In this document: in pieces, positions 20,178 through 29,278 of the stretch
How positions within the stretch are numbered: position 1 is the first letter of the stretch
How the letters are laid out: every line of letters begins with the position of its first letter
Sequence record: PZ179880.1
Direction: 5' to 3' (one strand)
DNA length: 64,000 bases
Source of the DNA: a phage
Program-made: the position numbers and the translations under genes
The notes under the pieces: generated by a model
The model's input: only the letters and a program-made list of their open reading frames with translations
The model's database searches: none
Told to the model about the DNA's origin: nothing

Positions 20178-20465
20178 TTTATTATTTTTAAGTATTGTAA
20201 AACATTCGATGCAATCGTTTATACTGTCGAATCATCTTTTTAGTAGGACGAGAATAGGTTCCTACGCAAGTGGTCATATGAGGGTCCGTAGAATGTCCTT
20301 TAATAAAAAGTTTCCAAACCTTACCGCCATTTAACTTTTCAGTATAAACCAATTCGGTTTTCATTAAAATGTCCTGTCAGAAAAAGAATTTTGAGTTTTT
20401 TCAAGTATTGTAAAACATTTGATGCAATCGCTTATATTGCCGAATCTTTTGGTCAGAAAAAGAAA
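20178..20465. repeat. Pair of ~50 bp direct repeats (about 90% identical) spanning the 3' ends of two adjacent ORFs
   Basis: Copy 1 about 20178-20235 and copy 2 about 20395-20455, both TTTTT(C)AAGTATTGTAAAACATT(C/T)GATGCAATCG... Confidence 0.7.
20196..20366 (-). CDS. Hypothetical 57 aa protein sharing its C-terminal 14 residues with the next ORF
   Basis: Hand-translated MKTELVYTEKLNGGKVWKLFIKGHSTDPHMTTCVGTYSRPTKKMIRQYKRLHRMFYNT; not in ORF track (<60 aa). Confidence 0.4.
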
Positions 20466-20904
20466 TTTGAGTTTCAAGCCATTCAATGTACTCTGCGGCA
20501 GCTTGCATCAGGTTACCTTCATAGCCATCGTTATTTTCTTGCGCAGCTAATTTAGCTAATGCGTATGAAATACGTTCACCTTGAAAAGCGGCTTTAGGCT
20601 TCTGAACATCTTGGCTAGTTCTCTCTACAACTTCTTCAATTTCGCCATTTTCAACGGATTCAGTATTCCACAAACACCAGTATGTAATTGGCTTATCATA
20701 GATGTTAATAATCTTTCCGTCGGAAAGTTCAATTTCAATAATTCCAGTATCAGGTTCTATATCATCTTCGCATTCTTTTGCAAGTTCACGAACTTTAAAG
20801 ACAATACCTGCACTAAGTTCAGGCCAGTAATTACACAGCCCTTTATCAGCACGATTAATTCTAAACCACTTATCTACTGTAATCATGTCCCATCTCCATA
20901 TCAA
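20401..20904 (-). CDS. Hypothetical protein at the T4 pin locus (possibly protease inhibitor Pin)
   Basis: 167 aa ORF between 49 and nrdC; product assignment by position only. Confidence 0.45.
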   Translation of the reverse strand: MIWRWDMITVDKWFRINRADKGLCNYWPELSAGIVFKVRELAKECEDDIEPDTGIIEIELSDGKIINIYDKPITYWCLWNTESVENGEIEEVVERTSQDVQKPKAAFQGERISYALAKLAAQENNDGYEGNLMQAAAEYIEWLETQISFSDQKIRQYKRLHQMFYNT

Positions 20905-21008
20905 TTATGTCATTTATTGTAGGTTCATTATATACTGTTTCTTCATCAGTGTAAACCGGTTCTTCCGGCTCTGGCTCCACAGTTTCCCATCTAACCGCCC
21001 ACCAAGGT

Positions 21009-21218
21009 TTAACCCCGAAGCTTATTAAGTTCTTCATAATCAATCCAGGATTCTAGTCCTGATGGCAAATCAGATTCAATTTCCCAAAGAAGTTCTTCAA
21101 TTTTATGAAGACGATCTAATTCTTCAGCTGGAATAGTAACCATTGATGGAGTTCTTGCTACATTAATATCGTAAATCATATTTACCCCAGTTTGACCATA
21201 CAATCGCCGTATTTCCAC
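21009..21218 (-). CDS. Hypothetical protein
   Basis: 69 aa ORF. Confidence 0.4.
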   Translation of the reverse strand: MEIRRLYGQTGVNMIYDINVARTPSMVTIPAEELDRLHKIEELLWEIESDLPSGLESWIDYEELNKLRG

Positions 21219-21397
21219 TTAGAAATAGACTTTTCACCATTAGAATAATAAACTTCAAGTTTAGCACGATTATTTTTAATTTGAATAACCTTGGCTGTCA
21301 TCAAAGTTCCATACCCATAATAAACTGCAACTTCATCACCTACATATACCGCGCTTCCGCGGTAATCATGAATATAGTCAGTTCCTTCGAGCATCAT
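21182..21397 (-). CDS. Hypothetical protein
   Basis: 71 aa ORF. Confidence 0.4.
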   Translation of the reverse strand: MMLEGTDYIHDYRGSAVYVGDEVAVYYGYGTLMTAKVIQIKNNRAKLEVYYSNGEKSISKWKYGDCMVKLG

Positions 21398-21903: not shown

Positions 21904-22293
21904 TTAATCCAAAATATTATTAGGCATTGGTTGAACACTCACAAGTTCTTTAAAGAACTCAGTAGAGTCAGGCAATTTAACCATTTCCGGAGCATGCTTA
22001 CTGAATTTATGTTTACATTGACGGCATTTATATTCAAGCTCTGGTTTACGCCAGTTAATCAATTGAACTTGTTCAGTACCGCATTCAGGGCAATTAGGAA
22101 CGTTTTTAGAAGCTCTTTCACGTCGTTCAACCATAGCCATAATAGCATCCCATGCTGGAGGTTTAAAATCTAAATCGTCGCAGCCGTGAATCTTTCCACG
22201 CATTTCCATATCATCTTCCTCACCAGCCATAATAATTTTAATTAAACTGGAATTACTTGAAGCTGCAATGTCTTCTAATAAACGCTTTTTCAT
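21904..22293 (-). CDS. Hypothetical protein with Zn-ribbon-like cysteine pairs
   Basis: 129 aa; CPECG ... CRQCKHKF. Confidence 0.5.
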
Positions 22294-23216
22294 TTCAATA
22301 CCTCAATAGCATTACGTAAACCATTTGCTTTGGCGGTTAAAGCCTTAAGAACTTTAGTATGCTCTTCAATCTGTTTTTCAACTTCAATCAAACGGGCACT
22401 GAGATATTCGCGTTCTTCTTTCATAGTATCATTTCCATGATTGGATTTTGGTGTAGGTTTAAATTCACTAGGGTCCTTTAATTTAATAACAAATTTAGTT
22501 TCAAACAGCGAAAGACCATAATTCGTATTATCATCAAAGGATTTGACTACATCCATATCAGATAATAACACGCGTAAATTATAAGCCAAAGAACTAATAG
22601 TTTCATTGTGTTTATTAGCTTCGCGTGGTTTCATATACGGAAGATTTTTATATATCTCGTGCGGAGCACAAATGATAATTGACAATTCAAATTGCCCATT
22701 CTGGGACGATGGAGTGAATTTAGCCGTAACCCAGTCTTTTACATTCACATTAATAGTACGGTTATCACCATGACAAAACAGTCTACGAGAATGCTTAAAA
22801 AGCATATTCACGTTATTATTGAATTCGTGTGAAAATTCACTAGCAAATTTTTCTTTACTATCTTTAGAAAACCATTCTTCTAAATAAGTTCTTTTCACGT
22901 CGTTAATAATATTAAATGTAACAACACTAGCATTTGATACATTAGTCTCAATGTAGCTTGGATACATAAATTTTTTAACATTATTAACAGCTATCACAGA
23001 AGATAGTAATCGGGAACGTTTGAACCACTCGAGCAAAGAACCAAGAGAATGTGAATACGCATTTTGTGTATCTTTACAAATATGGTTTTCCCATCCAATA
23101 TAGTCTAAAAAATCACGAAGAATATTATTGATTACTGCTCTGTGTCCTATCTGATAATTACGATGTTTAGTAATAAGACTGTCAAAATAATCAATATAAT
23201 GTTTACGAGTTTTCAT
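22290..23216 (-). CDS. Hypothetical protein with C-terminal coiled coil (paralogue family member 1)
   Basis: 308 aa; C-terminal heptad-rich helix ending AIEVLK. Confidence 0.6.
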   Translation of the reverse strand: MKTRKHYIDYFDSLITKHRNYQIGHRAVINNILRDFLDYIGWENHICKDTQNAYSHSLGSLLEWFKRSRLLSSVIAVNNVKKFMYPSYIETNVSNASVVTFNIINDVKRTYLEEWFSKDSKEKFASEFSHEFNNNVNMLFKHSRRLFCHGDNRTINVNVKDWVTAKFTPSSQNGQFELSIIICAPHEIYKNLPYMKPREANKHNETISSLAYNLRVLLSDMDVVKSFDDNTNYGLSLFETKFVIKLKDPSEFKPTPKSNHGNDTMKEEREYLSARLIEVEKQIEEHTKVLKALTAKANGLRNAIEVLK

Positions 23217-23268
23217 GTTCTTCTCACTTGGTTAATGATTTATACTCCGAGCCATCCTTGGCTTTAAA

Positions 23269-24270
23269 TTACTTAATTAACTGTAAAGCTTGTTCCAGAC
23301 GATCAAGACGATTAACAGATTCTTCCCAAATCCTTTTAGCCTGCTCATATTCTTTCTGCGCTTTATTAGAAATTTCTAGAACTTCTTTATAAGCTTTTTC
23401 TAGTGCAATAACTTCTGGACGAATTTCTATCGGTTCAGGTGAATCATCAAGACATTCCATTAGTTCCTCAAGGGTAGTTTCTTCTTTAGGAGTATTCACA
23501 ATTTCATCACATTTTTGTTGGTAAATTTCTTTATCAGTAGGTGAATAAGCACATTTCACTTCACGAAGGCTAATTACGAGTTTATATCCTTCCCAACCGC
23601 ATATATTCTTAAAAGGATATGTATGAATATTTTCTACTGTTTCCATACAAAGTAATGCGGTCACTAATTGACGAGTTATAGTGCTAGCAATTGAGAAAAA
23701 TTTATTAATATTCTTTTGGTTAGTTTCTGGTGTAAAAAATCCATAATTCACAAAAATAGATACTTTATTTTTATCAAGTTCATATTCTTTTATGATAATC
23801 ATATCAGAAGCCAAAGGATGAATTTGACGATAATCGCCATAACATAATTTAGAAGCTGATTTTAGAATCTGTCCTTTGAAAAGTCTGAAATTACTAATCC
23901 AACGACGAGTAAAAATATTCTCAGGGTCTTCTTTATTATTAAGATGATAAGAATTAACATCACCGAACCAATTATATCCTACTACATCTTTGGTTCGTTT
24001 AATTTCTTTCCCAAAATTACCAAGAATATCCCGATTAACCAAATATGAAAGAAGACGAGACTCTTTAAAGGTTTTCTTGATAACATCTTTATCTACACGG
24101 CTAGAAATTTTACGAATTTCATGAATAAATTTAGTAGAAGAAACAATACTTGCATCAACACTATTGAGCCATTGATTGATAATAGAAAGAACGCTATTTT
24201 GGCCAAACATCGGTATAGCTTTATCATCAATAACGCTATTGAATGATTTGATATATTCGTTACGAGTCAA
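23269..24270 (-). CDS. Hypothetical protein with C-terminal coiled coil (member 2)
   Basis: 333 aa; N-terminus resembles member 1; C-terminal helix ending ALQLIK. Confidence 0.6.
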   Translation of the reverse strand: MTRNEYIKSFNSVIDDKAIPMFGQNSVLSIINQWLNSVDASIVSSTKFIHEIRKISSRVDKDVIKKTFKESRLLSYLVNRDILGNFGKEIKRTKDVVGYNWFGDVNSYHLNNKEDPENIFTRRWISNFRLFKGQILKSASKLCYGDYRQIHPLASDMIIIKEYELDKNKVSIFVNYGFFTPETNQKNINKFFSIASTITRQLVTALLCMETVENIHTYPFKNICGWEGYKLVISLREVKCAYSPTDKEIYQQKCDEIVNTPKEETTLEELMECLDDSPEPIEIRPEVIALEKAYKEVLEISNKAQKEYEQAKRIWEESVNRLDRLEQALQLIK

Positions 24271-24325
24271 TAATCTCCTCAGTAGAAAGTAAGAACATTA
24301 TACCACATCCTTGTGGCAAAGTAAA

Positions 24326-25354
24326 CTAGTTCAGTGCATTTAGTGCATTGTTCAGTTTAGAACGTTGCTTTGTCAGATTTTGAACCCTTGACTGAGCTTG
24401 TTCTAACGCCTTTTCAGCTTCTAGCATTTCATTGGTCGCTTTAACGAGTTCATCATCTACTGCCTTAAGAGACTTTTCAATCGCATCAGCGTGCCATTTT
24501 TCTACAGGTTTAAAATTTGAATTTTCAGTAGGAAGAAAACTCACTTTATTAAGTTTACATGCATCTATGTTACTTGAACTGTACATCCAACATTTAGGAT
24601 CGTTTGATAAGTAATTGGATAAATTTAAATTTAAGGTATCTTGCACTTCCTGCTTTTTCTCTTGAACAATTTCATCCTTTCTCAAAAATTCATATTTAAA
24701 TGAAACGATCATATCAAGTTCATATGTTGTTGTATGTTCCCAATTTCGCTCAAAACGAGGTAAAATCTTAGATTGAACAGCAGCAACAACATCCATATAC
24801 TTAAATGCTTCTGTCAGCTGTGATTTAAGACATTCACAAATTGAAAGAGAATTTTTAGTATTAGGCTTAAAGCTAATTCGTGCAGTTCTATTATTTTCTT
24901 TTAACGGTCTTACTTCCATCTGAAGAGTATAACCATCAAATTTCAGGTTCTTTAAGTTAATATCAGAGCCTTTTAATCGACTAGCAGTAGACAAAATTTG
25001 CTTTAATTGTTTACGGAATAGAGCAATAAATCTCCATTCAATACGATAATGATTTGGATTGAAAAATCCAGATGATAAATCGACCTTACTTTGACCAACG
25101 CCTTGAACAATCAAAGGATTTTTATAATCAATAGTTTTACAGAAATCGGTGAGCTGTTCACGAGCAGTCATTTGTGTAATATACCCTGCTTTACTAAAAT
25201 TACGCACCCATTCACTGCTATTCGTATACTTAAAGTGATGAATAACACGATTAACTTTATCAGGGTCTAAATTATTTTCACACAAAAATGTCATAACATC
25301 ACGAGTATAGCTGGCATTACGAACCATATCTTCAATTTGAGAACGAGTTTTCAT
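24326..25354 (-). CDS. Hypothetical protein with C-terminal coiled coil (member 3)
   Basis: 342 aa; C-terminal helix ending ALNALN. Confidence 0.6.
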   Translation of the reverse strand: MKTRSQIEDMVRNASYTRDVMTFLCENNLDPDKVNRVIHHFKYTNSSEWVRNFSKAGYITQMTAREQLTDFCKTIDYKNPLIVQGVGQSKVDLSSGFFNPNHYRIEWRFIALFRKQLKQILSTASRLKGSDINLKNLKFDGYTLQMEVRPLKENNRTARISFKPNTKNSLSICECLKSQLTEAFKYMDVVAAVQSKILPRFERNWEHTTTYELDMIVSFKYEFLRKDEIVQEKKQEVQDTLNLNLSNYLSNDPKCWMYSSSNIDACKLNKVSFLPTENSNFKPVEKWHADAIEKSLKAVDDELVKATNEMLEAEKALEQAQSRVQNLTKQRSKLNNALNALN

Positions 25355-25362
25355 GGTGTTCC

Positions 25363-26265
25363 TTAAGATTTAAGTAAATCAACGATTTTAATTAATTTTT
25401 CACGCTCAGATTTAGCTTTACTACTCAATCCAGATAGTCTGAAAATTTCATCATCATATTGCTGAATAGAAATATTTAGCTCTTCAATCTGCTTATTAAA
25501 ATAAGCAATTTGTTCAGAATGTTTTTCATTACTGCGAACTGGTACAGGTTTTGTAGGTAATTTAGTTGAACTGGATTCATCTGGGCGATAAATTAAAATG
25601 CAATTTGAACCAATCGGACATTTAGCACCAGACACATATTCTAATGTTCCGGCTTCTTTTAAAACTTCAAAAGCTAAACAGAGATGATGCCCCATATTAA
25701 CATAATCTGTAGAGCGAGCTCTGATGTAATAATCATCTCCACGAGTACTAAATTTAAAGCATTTAAGGTCTTCTGTATTATTGGTCTTAAAAATCATTTG
25801 TTTATCTAGACCTTTAGCTAATCGAGCGCCTAATGCTAATAATCGTCGTTGATTTTCCCACAAATCCGCAATCATTTGGTCAAATGATAATTTCGGCATT
25901 AGTCGACCATAAAGGTCATATCCTTTATTATAATTGCGAAGGATTTCACTCGCATTAATACGAGACAACGCTCCAATTTTATTAAGGGCTTTCATGATGC
26001 GATTAGATAAACCCATTCCAGATCCGTTTGTTCGTTGCAAATGTTTATCTAATCCAAACCCAATATCAACTTTAAATTTATCTAAAATTTCAGCATGAAC
26101 ATCTCTGTCAATAACATTCAAATCCAAAGTTGGGTTAAATCTATGAAAAAATTTATCTGGCTCTCCACGACGAAGTACAGTCCATTCATTTAATTTTTTA
26201 TTAACTAAAGATTTAATTACTGCATTGACATTATTAATTACTACTGACATATTTTCCTCACTCAA
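25363..26265 (-). CDS. Hypothetical protein with C-terminal coiled coil (member 4)
   Basis: 300 aa; C-terminal helix ending IVDLLKS. Confidence 0.6.
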   Translation of the reverse strand: MSEENMSVVINNVNAVIKSLVNKKLNEWTVLRRGEPDKFFHRFNPTLDLNVIDRDVHAEILDKFKVDIGFGLDKHLQRTNGSGMGLSNRIMKALNKIGALSRINASEILRNYNKGYDLYGRLMPKLSFDQMIADLWENQRRLLALGARLAKGLDKQMIFKTNNTEDLKCFKFSTRGDDYYIRARSTDYVNMGHHLCLAFEVLKEAGTLEYVSGAKCPIGSNCILIYRPDESSSTKLPTKPVPVRSNEKHSEQIAYFNKQIEELNISIQQYDDEIFRLSGLSSKAKSEREKLIKIVDLLKS

Positions 26266-26721: not shown

Positions 26722-27249
26722 TTATGCGAGTACCGTCTTTAACCGTTCTTCAAACTTCCGAAGAGTATTTTGGCGTTCAGCTCTTTGCTTTTTGTAAGTT
26801 TCAATACGCTCTGAAATGAGAGTGTATCGTTCATTTACTGATTCTTTCATAAAATCAGGAATTTCACGAGAAGCTTTAATCTCATCAAATTTATCAATAA
26901 CAGCTTGCTCTTCAGCAATTAAGTTATCATACATCAAAATATCTTTCTTGATGAACTCAATATCTTCTTGAGTTACACGAGATAATTTAGATGCTTTATC
27001 CTTTTTGTACTGTTCATTAGTATCACGAGACCAGTGTAATGTACGATTTTTATTCGTATTCTTGTAAATTTCTACAATACCAATCTCATCGATAATAACG
27101 ATCCAATTCCAACGGGATTTGTAAATTTGTCCTCCATCAACCGTGATTTCACCTCCGATTGAGATGTCATTAAAGAACTTGCTTTGTGCTTCAGATTTAA
27201 ATTTACCATCGTTATAATTTACTAAGTTGAAAATATCTTTAGCGTTCAT
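26722..27249 (-). CDS. Hypothetical protein
   Basis: 175 aa ORF downstream of an early promoter. Confidence 0.55.
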   Translation of the reverse strand: MNAKDIFNLVNYNDGKFKSEAQSKFFNDISIGGEITVDGGQIYKSRWNWIVIIDEIGIVEIYKNTNKNRTLHWSRDTNEQYKKDKASKLSRVTQEDIEFIKKDILMYDNLIAEEQAVIDKFDEIKASREIPDFMKESVNERYTLISERIETYKKQRAERQNTLRKFEERLKTVLA

Positions 27250-27277: not shown

Positions 27278-27307
27278 ATAATACCACAGAGGAACAGTCT
27301 TGTAAAC
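27278..27307 (-). promoter_or_regulatory. Early sigma70-type promoter
   Basis: Minus strand GTTTAC - 18 bp - TGG TATTAT. Confidence 0.55.
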
Positions 27308-27713: not shown

Positions 27714-28694
27714 TTATTTCAGAAGAGTAACCTCAGCAATTTCTTCCCAACCGTTTTTGTCGGTCATAATAAAGTCAGCAAGATAAAGAGCAGTACGCAG
27801 TGAAACATTGCGTAAACGATTAACATTAACTTTCATCCATGATAATGCTTTATAAGTTTCTTCATCAGAAAGACCGCGCTTTTGCATCATGTCAGTTGAA
27901 AGAATAACATCTTCAACCCTGACCATAATTTCTTCATTAGTGTGAACACCCAAATCCAAATAAACCGAGCGGGACACTAATGCTTGTAAATGTGGAGCAA
28001 GTTTAGTACCACGGTCTAATTCGCGGTCAATGTCAACGTTTGTGATAAAAACAATCGTTCCTTTAAATTCAAACTCACGCTCAATGCCTTTTTCTTCTAA
28101 GTAAGAAGATGCGGTGCTCCAGCAGACTTTACGGGTCTCTCCAGTGTCCAGAGCAGCTTTCAGAAGATTAAGAATGTCCATATCAGAGAAAACATCCACA
28201 TCATCAATCAAAAGGACAGAATTCTCTTCACGATTATTCCAAAGCTGCTCATAAAGACCAATACCAGAGATTTTACCATTAATGCTTTTATATTCAATGT
28301 ATCCAATATCATTTGCTTTATTTAAAGCTTTATCTAAAGAATACGTTTTACCAATACCTGCTGCGCCAGAGATAATTAATGAACGAATATTTCCATTAAT
28401 AATACCATTCGTCATCATTCCCATAACATTAAATCTTTTATTAATGCGGGTTTTCATATCTTCATACGATTCTTTAATTTCTTCAACTTTTACACCATCA
28501 TATGAAATATCTGATTTGTAAACCCAAACACCGCGACGTTTACCGTCAATTTCAACAAAAACTTTACCATCTCCTTGTGCATCTACCGGAGCATTATCTG
28601 GGAACCATTCGCCTAAGAGCTCAAAAGTTCCAGAGATTTCTTTACCGAAGTAGATACCCTTATTGATAGTTACAGTTTTCATTTTATTCTCCAA
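27714..28694 (-). CDS. P-loop NTPase (AAA-like ATPase)
   Basis: 326 aa; Walker A GAAGIGKT, Walker B LLIDDVD. Confidence 0.7.
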   Translation of the reverse strand: MENKMKTVTINKGIYFGKEISGTFELLGEWFPDNAPVDAQGDGKVFVEIDGKRRGVWVYKSDISYDGVKVEEIKESYEDMKTRINKRFNVMGMMTNGIINGNIRSLIISGAAGIGKTYSLDKALNKANDIGYIEYKSINGKISGIGLYEQLWNNREENSVLLIDDVDVFSDMDILNLLKAALDTGETRKVCWSTASSYLEEKGIEREFEFKGTIVFITNVDIDRELDRGTKLAPHLQALVSRSVYLDLGVHTNEEIMVRVEDVILSTDMMQKRGLSDEETYKALSWMKVNVNRLRNVSLRTALYLADFIMTDKNGWEEIAEVTLLK

Positions 28695-29228: not shown

Positions 29229-29278
29229 AATTTTGTGAAAAATTTTTGAAATAAAAAAGGGAGCCCGAAGGCTCCCTA

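Follow-up and report, generated by a model that had tools for sequence, protein, structure and literature searches.

Two sets of observations frame the locus described here. T4 mutants that evolved with compensatory deletions included one clone that lost plating on ECOR17 and on MG1655 carrying dsr1, and plasmid-borne expression of the early gene nrdC.5 restored infection of dsr1 cells by that deletion clone (Srikant et al. 2022, eLife, PMC9391042). Dsr1 is a SIR2-domain protein thought to disrupt cellular levels of nicotinamide adenine dinucleotide (NAD+), and its sensor, shared with Avs7, recognizes the phage major capsid protein (PMC13581612). A phage inhibitor of a related kind of defense is DSAD1, which binds the sensor region of DSR2, a SIR2-type NADase activated by tail tube protein (PMC10973363, PMC11087589), while just downstream of nrdC.5 in the same gene string (~2 kb in T4-type genomes) T6 gp49.2 inhibits the OLD defense (PMC13096335). 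Here we analyze nrdC.5 and its tandem neighbors nrdC.3, nrdC.4, and nrdC.6 in a 64,000-nucleotide stretch of phage DNA (sequence record PZ179880.1, hereafter the window) and find that the four genes are diverged copies of a single ancestral gene of T4-like phages.

Four consecutive genes in a T4-type genome segment

The window is a segment of a T4-type (Tequatrovirus) genome: the 4-kb region of the array shares 99.8% nucleotide identity with Escherichia phage ECO07P4 and 95.6% with T4, and the same 4 kb is matched by 507 phage records, nearly all of them Tequatrovirus. A first-pass annotation made from the sequence alone had delineated four consecutive open reading frames (ORFs) of 308, 333, 342, and 300 amino acids, which we confirm and place on the minus strand. 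Synteny with the annotated RB51 genome, by which gene names were assigned, identifies them as nrdC.3, nrdC.4, nrdC.5, and nrdC.6, with nrdC.7/nrdC.8 upstream and nrdC.2/nrdC.1/nrdC downstream.

22290..23216, minus strand: nrdC.3, 308 amino acids, family member (ORF, RB51 synteny, phrog_1435 at E = 6e-101)
23269..24270, minus strand: nrdC.4, 333 amino acids, family member and closest paralog of nrdC.3 (phrog_1435 at E = 9e-168)
24326..25354, minus strand: nrdC.5, 342 amino acids, Pfam DUF7235, ortholog of the T4 anti-Dsr1 gene (PF23882 at E = 1e-120)
25363..26265, minus strand: nrdC.6, 300-amino-acid ORF from TTG, most divergent family member (phrog_2257)

Identity to the T4 counterparts amounts to 92.5% for nrdC.3, ~97% for nrdC.4, and 97% for nrdC.6. 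The nrdC.5 product is 93% identical over 333 residues to that of the tested T4 anti-Dsr1 gene and is encoded at the same locus, so that the window gene is an anti-Dsr1 gene by orthology, the activity itself having been shown only for the T4 allele. The view that no described T4 function could be assigned to the array is thus superseded: the genes map one to one onto named T4 genes, and the function of nrdC.5 is published. Conversely, the idea that all four would correspond to T4 genes of known function holds for the mapping and, as regards function, for nrdC.5 only. Relative to T4 NrdC.5, the 342-residue window protein is the ortholog, whereas NrdC.3, NrdC.4, and NrdC.6 are distant paralogs of the same architecture that are filed in families other than DUF7235, action against Dsr1 being known for NrdC.5 alone.

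Homology of the four proteins

Pairwise sequence comparison reveals little of this relationship. BLASTP among the four detects only nrdC.3 against nrdC.4 (E = 0.003), all other pairs being insignificant, and nrdC.3, nrdC.4, and nrdC.6 are 14-21% identical to nrdC.5. PHROGs places both nrdC.3 and nrdC.4, at full length, in phrog_1435, nrdC.5 in phrog_2351, and nrdC.6 in phrog_2257. In Pfam, nrdC.5 passes the DUF7235 gathering threshold of 30 bits (PF23882, 403 bits), which nrdC.3 does not reach (11.4 bits, over the tail only) and for which nrdC.4 and nrdC.6 give no match; PF26897 and PF26899 are labels precomputed on 90-99% identical homologs of nrdC.4 and nrdC.6, and the window proteins matched neither of them in the Pfam copy searched. 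Insignificant BLASTP scores outside the nrdC.3-nrdC.4 pair and separate Pfam and PHROGs families would both fit four unrelated proteins that carry a generic C-terminal coiled coil through convergence or composition, an explanation that is largely refuted by the comparisons below and that we regard as barely credible.

Comparison of the family alignments with hhalign connects nrdC.3 to nrdC.4 with a probability of 98% (E = 7e-14) and nrdC.4 to nrdC.5 over 233 collinear columns (E = 1.5e-4), and the remaining family pairs yield weak yet collinear matches that run every time through the same motifs. A MAFFT alignment of 24 diverse members likewise brings all four families into collinear register and defines five shared elements: motif 1, F-K-x-[SG]-x-[LI]-[ST]...A-x-x-x-L-x-[ND]-[FY]; motif 2, LL-x-x-A-[SA]-[RK]-L-x-x-G; motif 3, A-[LF]-x-x-M-[DE]-x-V; a PxP[VI] motif immediately ahead of the final helix; and the C-terminal ending itself. 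Motifs 1-3 lie outside the coiled coil and the profile matches between families extend over the head domains, both of which argue against unrelated proteins joined to a generic helix. The N-terminal motif first noticed in two of the proteins is real but more widespread: three proteins of the array carry M(K)TR, with T3 and R4 invariant in alignment A2.

As a noncircular check, we built hidden Markov models (HMMs) without the family under test and ran them against the 104 window ORFs of at least 80 amino acids. These leave-family-out models recover nrdC.4 (E = 7.8e-10), nrdC.3 (7.6e-9), and nrdC.5 (7e-14), the next unrelated ORF scoring 0.05 or higher, and the superfamily HMM matches these four ORFs only in the 64-kb window. 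For nrdC.6, the link to the others is drawn from reciprocal profiles, sequences that bridge the clades, and the predicted structure. Built solely from the nrdC.6 clade, an HMM finds nrdC.4 (2.6e-5), nrdC.5 (6e-5), and nrdC.3 (0.08) as its top nonself matches, and hhalign of clades with distant members added gives 97% probability for each pair (c6-c5, 4.2e-11; c6-c34, 1.2e-10; c5-c34, 2.5e-11). Among the bridging proteins, P0242 matches the nrdC.5, nrdC.6, nrdC.3, and nrdC.4 HMMs at 3e-10, 4e-6, 3e-5, and 9e-4, respectively, and P0236 and P0241 score 9e-17 with the nrdC.6 HMM and ~1e-5 with those of nrdC.5 and nrdC.4; the curated DUF7235 model also matches several nrdC.6-like and nrdC.4-like bridging proteins, head-domain matches included.

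All four window proteins carry motifs 1-3, PxP[VI], and a heptad helix with the tail signature described below, and all show significant profile matches. The genes nrdC.3-nrdC.6 are therefore diverged tandem copies of one ancestral gene of T4-like phages, as the proposal of a duplicated and diversified family had anticipated and as both profile and structure comparison bear out. At the nucleotide level, a repeat search detected no duplication linking the genes, only the ATGAAAACTCGT start common to nrdC.3 and nrdC.5, and the duplications are therefore old. Four database families thereby become a single superfamily, confined to phages and with a defined domain layout, and we suggest that PF23882, PF26897, and PF26899 belong in one clan. 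Since Pfam still splits the family in three, it is this unification, together with the three candidate genes it yields, that is new, the kind of system being already known.

Predicted head, linker, and tail

To compare the folds, AlphaFold2 models were computed for nrdC.5 from an alignment of the nrdC.3, nrdC.4, and nrdC.5 families (predicted local distance difference test score, pLDDT, 71; predicted template modeling score, pTM, 0.58) and for nrdC.6 from its own family only (pLDDT 77.5, pTM 0.65), so that the two input alignments have no sequences in common. The order of elements is the same in both models: several N-terminal helices, among them the two helix pairs bearing motifs 1 and 2, come first and are followed by a small hairpin, a beta-beta-alpha-beta-beta unit with motif 3 on its helix, a low-confidence linker, and a terminal helix of 50-56 residues. 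Over the aligned head columns the secondary structures agree at 64%, against a mean of 38% for circular shifts, with none of the 222 shifts reaching the observed value. Foldseek searches of BFVD with both models return only uncharacterized 300-370-residue proteins of T4-like phages at 10-16% identity, and three targets are common to both (from Pectobacterium phage PM2, Acinetobacter phage Acj61, and Yersinia phage fHe-Yen9-01). Agreement in secondary-structure order between separate models and shared structural matches speak further against unrelated folds, and the possibility that the four proteins have different folds and no coiled coil, which had been named as the outcome that would overturn the family, is disfavored by profiles, models, and periodicity alike. 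According to the models, each protein is built of a two-lobed head (a helical lobe and a beta-beta-alpha-beta-beta lobe), a disordered linker, and a heptad helix of ~50 residues.

22293..22427, minus strand: nrdC.3 C-terminal heptad helix, residues 264-308
23272..23421, minus strand: nrdC.4 C-terminal heptad helix, residues 284-333
24332..24499, minus strand: nrdC.5 C-terminal heptad helix, residues 286-341 (AlphaFold2)
25369..25527, minus strand: nrdC.6 C-terminal helix, residues 247-299, modeled as 247-276 plus 282-299 (AlphaFold2)

The long C-terminal helix with heptads that had been read from the sequences appears in both AlphaFold2 models, and family periodicity supports it in all four tails: the 3.5-residue hydrophobic periodicity of the family alignments gives permutation p values of 0.02, <0.0005, 0.0005, and 0.0065 for the four, in predicted helices of 45-56 residues. 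In single-sequence heptad tests, all 10 a/d positions of nrdC.5 are hydrophobic (p < 0.005), and nrdC.4 and nrdC.6 are marginal (p about 0.05). Ahead of the nrdC.5 helix, residues 226-283 form a disordered, hypervariable linker. The resemblance of the C-terminal endings is equally genuine and marks the most conserved part of the superfamily: in a comparison of 17 divergent lineages, the 13 C-terminal residues, [QE]RxKLxxA[IL]xxLK, are the best-conserved part of the protein, with a mean BLOSUM pair score of 1.68 at the tail end versus 0.0-0.6 in other regions. Conservation of this signature beyond what a generic coiled coil needs points to a specific common interaction, which could be self-assembly, mixed assembly, or a common partner.

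Two metagenomic proteins, P0240 (173 amino acids) and P0229 (129 amino acids), join an unrelated N-terminal part to an NrdC.5-type or NrdC.6-type C-terminal helix. These joins hint that the tail may be shuffled as a module, and P0240 may be an assembly artifact; its head has no match in sequenced phages, only its NrdC.5-type tail being traceable.

The family alignment contains zero invariant columns and no invariant polar residue, the near-invariant positions being L, A, and P, and searches of Pfam, NCBIfam, PADLOC, and the sequences of the PDB by profile found no known domain or fold beyond the DUF7235 of nrdC.5. Isoelectric points (pI) are 9.1, 6.9, 9.1, and 9.2 for the four proteins. A DNA-mimic antirestriction role of the Ocr/ArdA type was considered and rejected, as it requires strongly acidic proteins and these four are basic or neutral; an enzymatic function was likewise rejected for a family without conserved polar residues. 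In its most specific form, the latter idea gives the family an enzymatic activity, for instance on NAD or products of its breakdown, by which NrdC.5 would counter Dsr1 metabolically and not by binding. Dsr1 acts by NAD depletion and phages are known to rebuild NAD via NARP pathways, which speaks for the idea, yet the lack of any invariant polar or catalytic residue across the family, the lack of a match to any enzyme family or fold, and a head-plus-long-coiled-coil architecture typical of binders render it very improbable. Taken together, the absence of an invariant polar residue and of enzyme-like matches and the basic or neutral pI lead us to read the four products as early-expressed binding proteins.

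Distribution, locus plasticity, and rates of evolution

When run against 1.84 billion representative proteins, the superfamily profile returned only 28 matches, which come from T4-like phages wherever their origin is traceable and 10 of which are new, distant, full-length members of unchanged architecture; a related-locus search with nrdC.3 alone gave only two close relatives. The family is thus restricted to T4-like phages. The position of the array, between nrdC.8 and nrdC.2, is constant, and its copy number varies: four in Tequatrovirus, three in RB69, one each in CC31 (Karamvirus) and PM2 (Mosugukvirus), and three (nrdC.6-like, nrdC.5-like, and nrdC.4-like) in nine other T4-like-looking contigs of ~155-172 kb. 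In one nrdC.3-like metagenomic protein, P0232 (225 amino acids), F, L, I, C, or Y stands in place of many residues; instead of a genuine variant, this looks like an assembly of reads with heavy C-to-T damage or hypermutation.

That the array lies in a plastic region, as first suggested, is borne out not only by copy numbers of 1, 3, or 4 across genera, but also by deletion, frameshift, fusion, and allele replacement. Phage ACG-C40 carries a natural deletion of nrdC.3 to nrdC.5 (L005, 6802-7213) and keeps nrdC.6 alone, nrdC.4 is split by a frameshift in another contig (L013, 9944-10997), and in a 299-residue protein (P0056) a deletion has fused the central part of nrdC.5 with the C-terminal half of nrdC.3. 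The array genes are dispensable and unstable. Among Tequatrovirus, nrdC.3 falls into two allele classes, of at least 90% and of ~60% amino acid identity, in phages that are otherwise ~92% identical, while the genes next to it stay >90% identical; compared with ECML-134, for instance, nrdC.4 is 98% identical and nrdC.3 only 61%. Adjoining genes have differing closest relatives, indicative of exchange gene by gene.

The ratio of nonsynonymous to synonymous substitution rates (dN/dS) is 0.16-0.35 for nrdC.3-nrdC.5, 0.06-0.10 for nrdC.6, and at most 0.1 for the majority of flanking genes, with higher values for nrdC.2 and nrdC.7, and the dN of nrdC.3-nrdC.5 is 5- to 30-fold above that of flanking genes. 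Variation among orthologs clusters near the N-terminus (residues ~30-55 of nrdC.5, 25-55 of nrdC.6, and 10-70 of nrdC.4), in the linker, and at residues ~190-215 of nrdC.5, the motif core and the tail being nearly invariant.

These patterns bear on whether the four products form a single machine, a mixed coiled-coil complex held together by the C-terminal helices that would act as a unit against Dsr1 or in another early process, and not as four independent inhibitors. Conservation of the extreme C-terminus across paralogs, unusual for independently evolving homo-oligomers, would fit such a complex, as would the adjacency and probable cotranscription of the genes and the stability of three- or four-copy arrays within genera. 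We nevertheless judge it distinctly unlikely: CC31 and PM2 have a single copy and ACG-C40 keeps nrdC.6 alone, gene-by-gene mosaic exchange speaks against tight coadaptation, and nrdC.5 alone, expressed from a plasmid, rescued a T4 mutant with a larger deletion (PMC9391042), with the qualification that this mutant may still carry other paralogs.

A candidate family of counter-defense binders

The account we favor, and hold with moderate confidence, is that nrdC.3-nrdC.6 encode an early-expressed, nonenzymatic, probably oligomeric family of counter-defense binders. The four products would be made early and act as nonenzymatic binders, in which the conserved tail would drive oligomerization or supply a common handle, and the fast-changing head, mainly the variable stretch within the first ~70 residues (~20-60), would recognize a host immune protein. 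In the manner of DSAD1 acting on DSR2, NrdC.5 could bind Dsr1 directly and keep it from firing at the late stage of infection when capsid protein appears, while NrdC.3, NrdC.4, and NrdC.6 would neutralize other defense systems. We propose the DSAD1/DSR2 pair as a working analogy for NrdC.5/Dsr1, namely an inhibitor that blocks activation by a phage structural protein, the activator of Dsr1 being the capsid protein; similarity of DSAD1 to the family proteins in sequence or fold was not encountered. Because NrdC.5 disarms Dsr1, its three paralogs are good candidate inhibitors of other defenses.

The genomic setting is compatible with such a role. Other antidefense genes in the region are pin and gp49.2, and the action of gp49.2 against OLD together with that of nrdC.5 against Dsr1 marks an antidefense neighborhood. 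Like the array genes, gp49.2 (PMC13096335) and TifA, Dmd, and AdfA (PMC9391042) are early, small to mid-sized, dispensable in the laboratory, variable, and clustered; they differ in being unrelated to the array in sequence, and none is reported as a set of tandem paralogs with a common coiled-coil tail.

A narrower alternative is that NrdC.5 alone serves counter-defense and that NrdC.3, NrdC.4, and NrdC.6 put this scaffold to other early uses, in host takeover or regulation, that have nothing to do with immunity. The strong purifying selection on nrdC.6, the compatibility of a pI about 9 with nucleic-acid or other general binding, and a literature search that returned no paper on nrdC.3, nrdC.4, or nrdC.6 all lean in this direction; the dispensability, proneness to deletion, and allelic variability of the genes, the occurrence of the family in phages only, and a region that holds pin, the anti-OLD gp49.2, and nrdC.5 itself lean away from it. 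We consider this alternative doubtful, if worth keeping in view.

Several results weigh against counter-defense binding by the whole family. Functional evidence is limited to nrdC.5. Gene-wide dN/dS is <1 for all four genes, and nrdC.6 evolves slowly (0.06-0.10), which fits a housekeeping-like role as well as an arms race. The nrdC.6 clade also fails the strict leave-clade-out HMM test (E = 0.26 among the 104 window ORFs). Confidence in the AlphaFold2 models is moderate (pLDDT 71 and 77.5), the single-sequence heptad test is not significant for nrdC.3 (p = 0.145), and we infer oligomerization through the tail from heptad periodicity alone. The arms-race pattern that the first-pass annotation had read into the array is upheld, with a correction: nrdC.5 does counter Dsr1 (PMC9391042), but with gene-wide dN/dS <1 the signature consists of faster evolution, allele replacement, and gene loss and not of pervasive positive selection.

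A more speculative extension of the binder model, which we rate as unlikely, would make the tail a common assembly handle, such that homo- or mixed coiled-coil oligomers display different, rapidly exchangeable heads as a modular, multispecific inhibitor platform. Each head would neutralize a different one of the sensors by which hosts recognize phage structural proteins (e.g., Dsr1/Avs7-type capsid sensors), and tandem duplication and the swapping of head alleles would be the sources of new specificities.

In practical terms, NrdC.5 is among the few known inhibitors of sirtuin-type NAD-depleting defense, and its three paralogs provide concrete candidate antidefense proteins in the best-studied phage. 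The domain map suggests, for mechanistic work, which part is for binding and which for assembly, and the one-, three-, and four-copy series can be used to study how counter-defense specificity is gained by duplication.

Gene starts, promoters, and neighboring genes

The nrdC.4 gene starts at a TTG codon preceded by GAGGAG. For nrdC.6, the true start is most likely not the TTG of the 300-residue ORF but the ATG at 26250, which is equipped with a GAGG Shine-Dalgarno sequence; the protein would then have 295 residues. An Rfam scan of the 20-30 kb interval found no RNA family. Further features within or next to the array are as follows.

24297..24325, minus strand: T4 early-type promoter, GTTTAC, 17-nucleotide spacer, TG-TATAAT, directly upstream of nrdC.4 (consensus match only)
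27278..27306, minus strand: early-type promoter-like site upstream of nrdC.8 (consensus match only)
21904..22293, minus strand: nrdC.2, 129 amino acids, CxxC zinc ribbon, conserved downstream neighbor

The promoter match upstream of nrdC.4 agrees with the description of nrdC.5 as an early gene (PMC9391042), and the site upstream of nrdC.8 is a candidate start for a transcript running into nrdC.6 and nrdC.5. At the other end of the array, the stop codon of nrdC.3 and the start codon of nrdC.2 overlap (ATGA), and an overlap of the nrdC.2 start with the stop of the last family member is found in every genus examined (four genera; also L004, 7942-8247; L007, 8996-9253; and L008, 8804-9016). Such an arrangement resembles conserved translational coupling and points to nrdC.2 as a possible partner of the family. 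The window nrdC.2 matches the T4 sequence over residues 1-99 only, at 78% identity, the annotated T4 nrdC.2 being 104 residues long.

Upstream of the array, the 175-residue product of nrdC.8 (26722-27249, minus strand) ends in a heptad-patterned helix (p = 0.015) and is 98-100% identical within Tequatrovirus; a 175-residue protein of Klebsiella phage KPV15 is a weak Foldseek match of the nrdC.5 model (E = 8e-4). Despite this helix, nrdC.8 was rejected as a fifth family member, as it gives no significant HMM match. Farther upstream, nrdC.10 (326 amino acids, 27714-28694, minus strand), which is conserved in all T4-like genera examined, shows weak matches to P-loop, AAA, and STAND-like nucleoside triphosphatases (AAA_14, E = 6e-5; nSTAND3, E = 5e-4).

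On the downstream side, the small ORFs between pin and nrdC (20188-21397, minus strand) differ from the 49.1-49.3 set of T4, and in the ECML-134 and ACG-C40 records a small ORF between pin/49.1 and nrdC, at a position corresponding to that of the window ORFs, is annotated as antitoxin-like. In T6, this position is occupied by the gene for the OLD inhibitor gp49.2 (PMC13096335). Finally, a strong GC-rich hairpin followed by a T-run lies at 29258-29277 on the minus strand (AGGGAGCC-TTCG-GGCTCCCT TTTTTATTT) and probably serves as the intrinsic terminator of the transcription unit upstream; early-type promoters follow it at 29227-29199 and 28747-28719.

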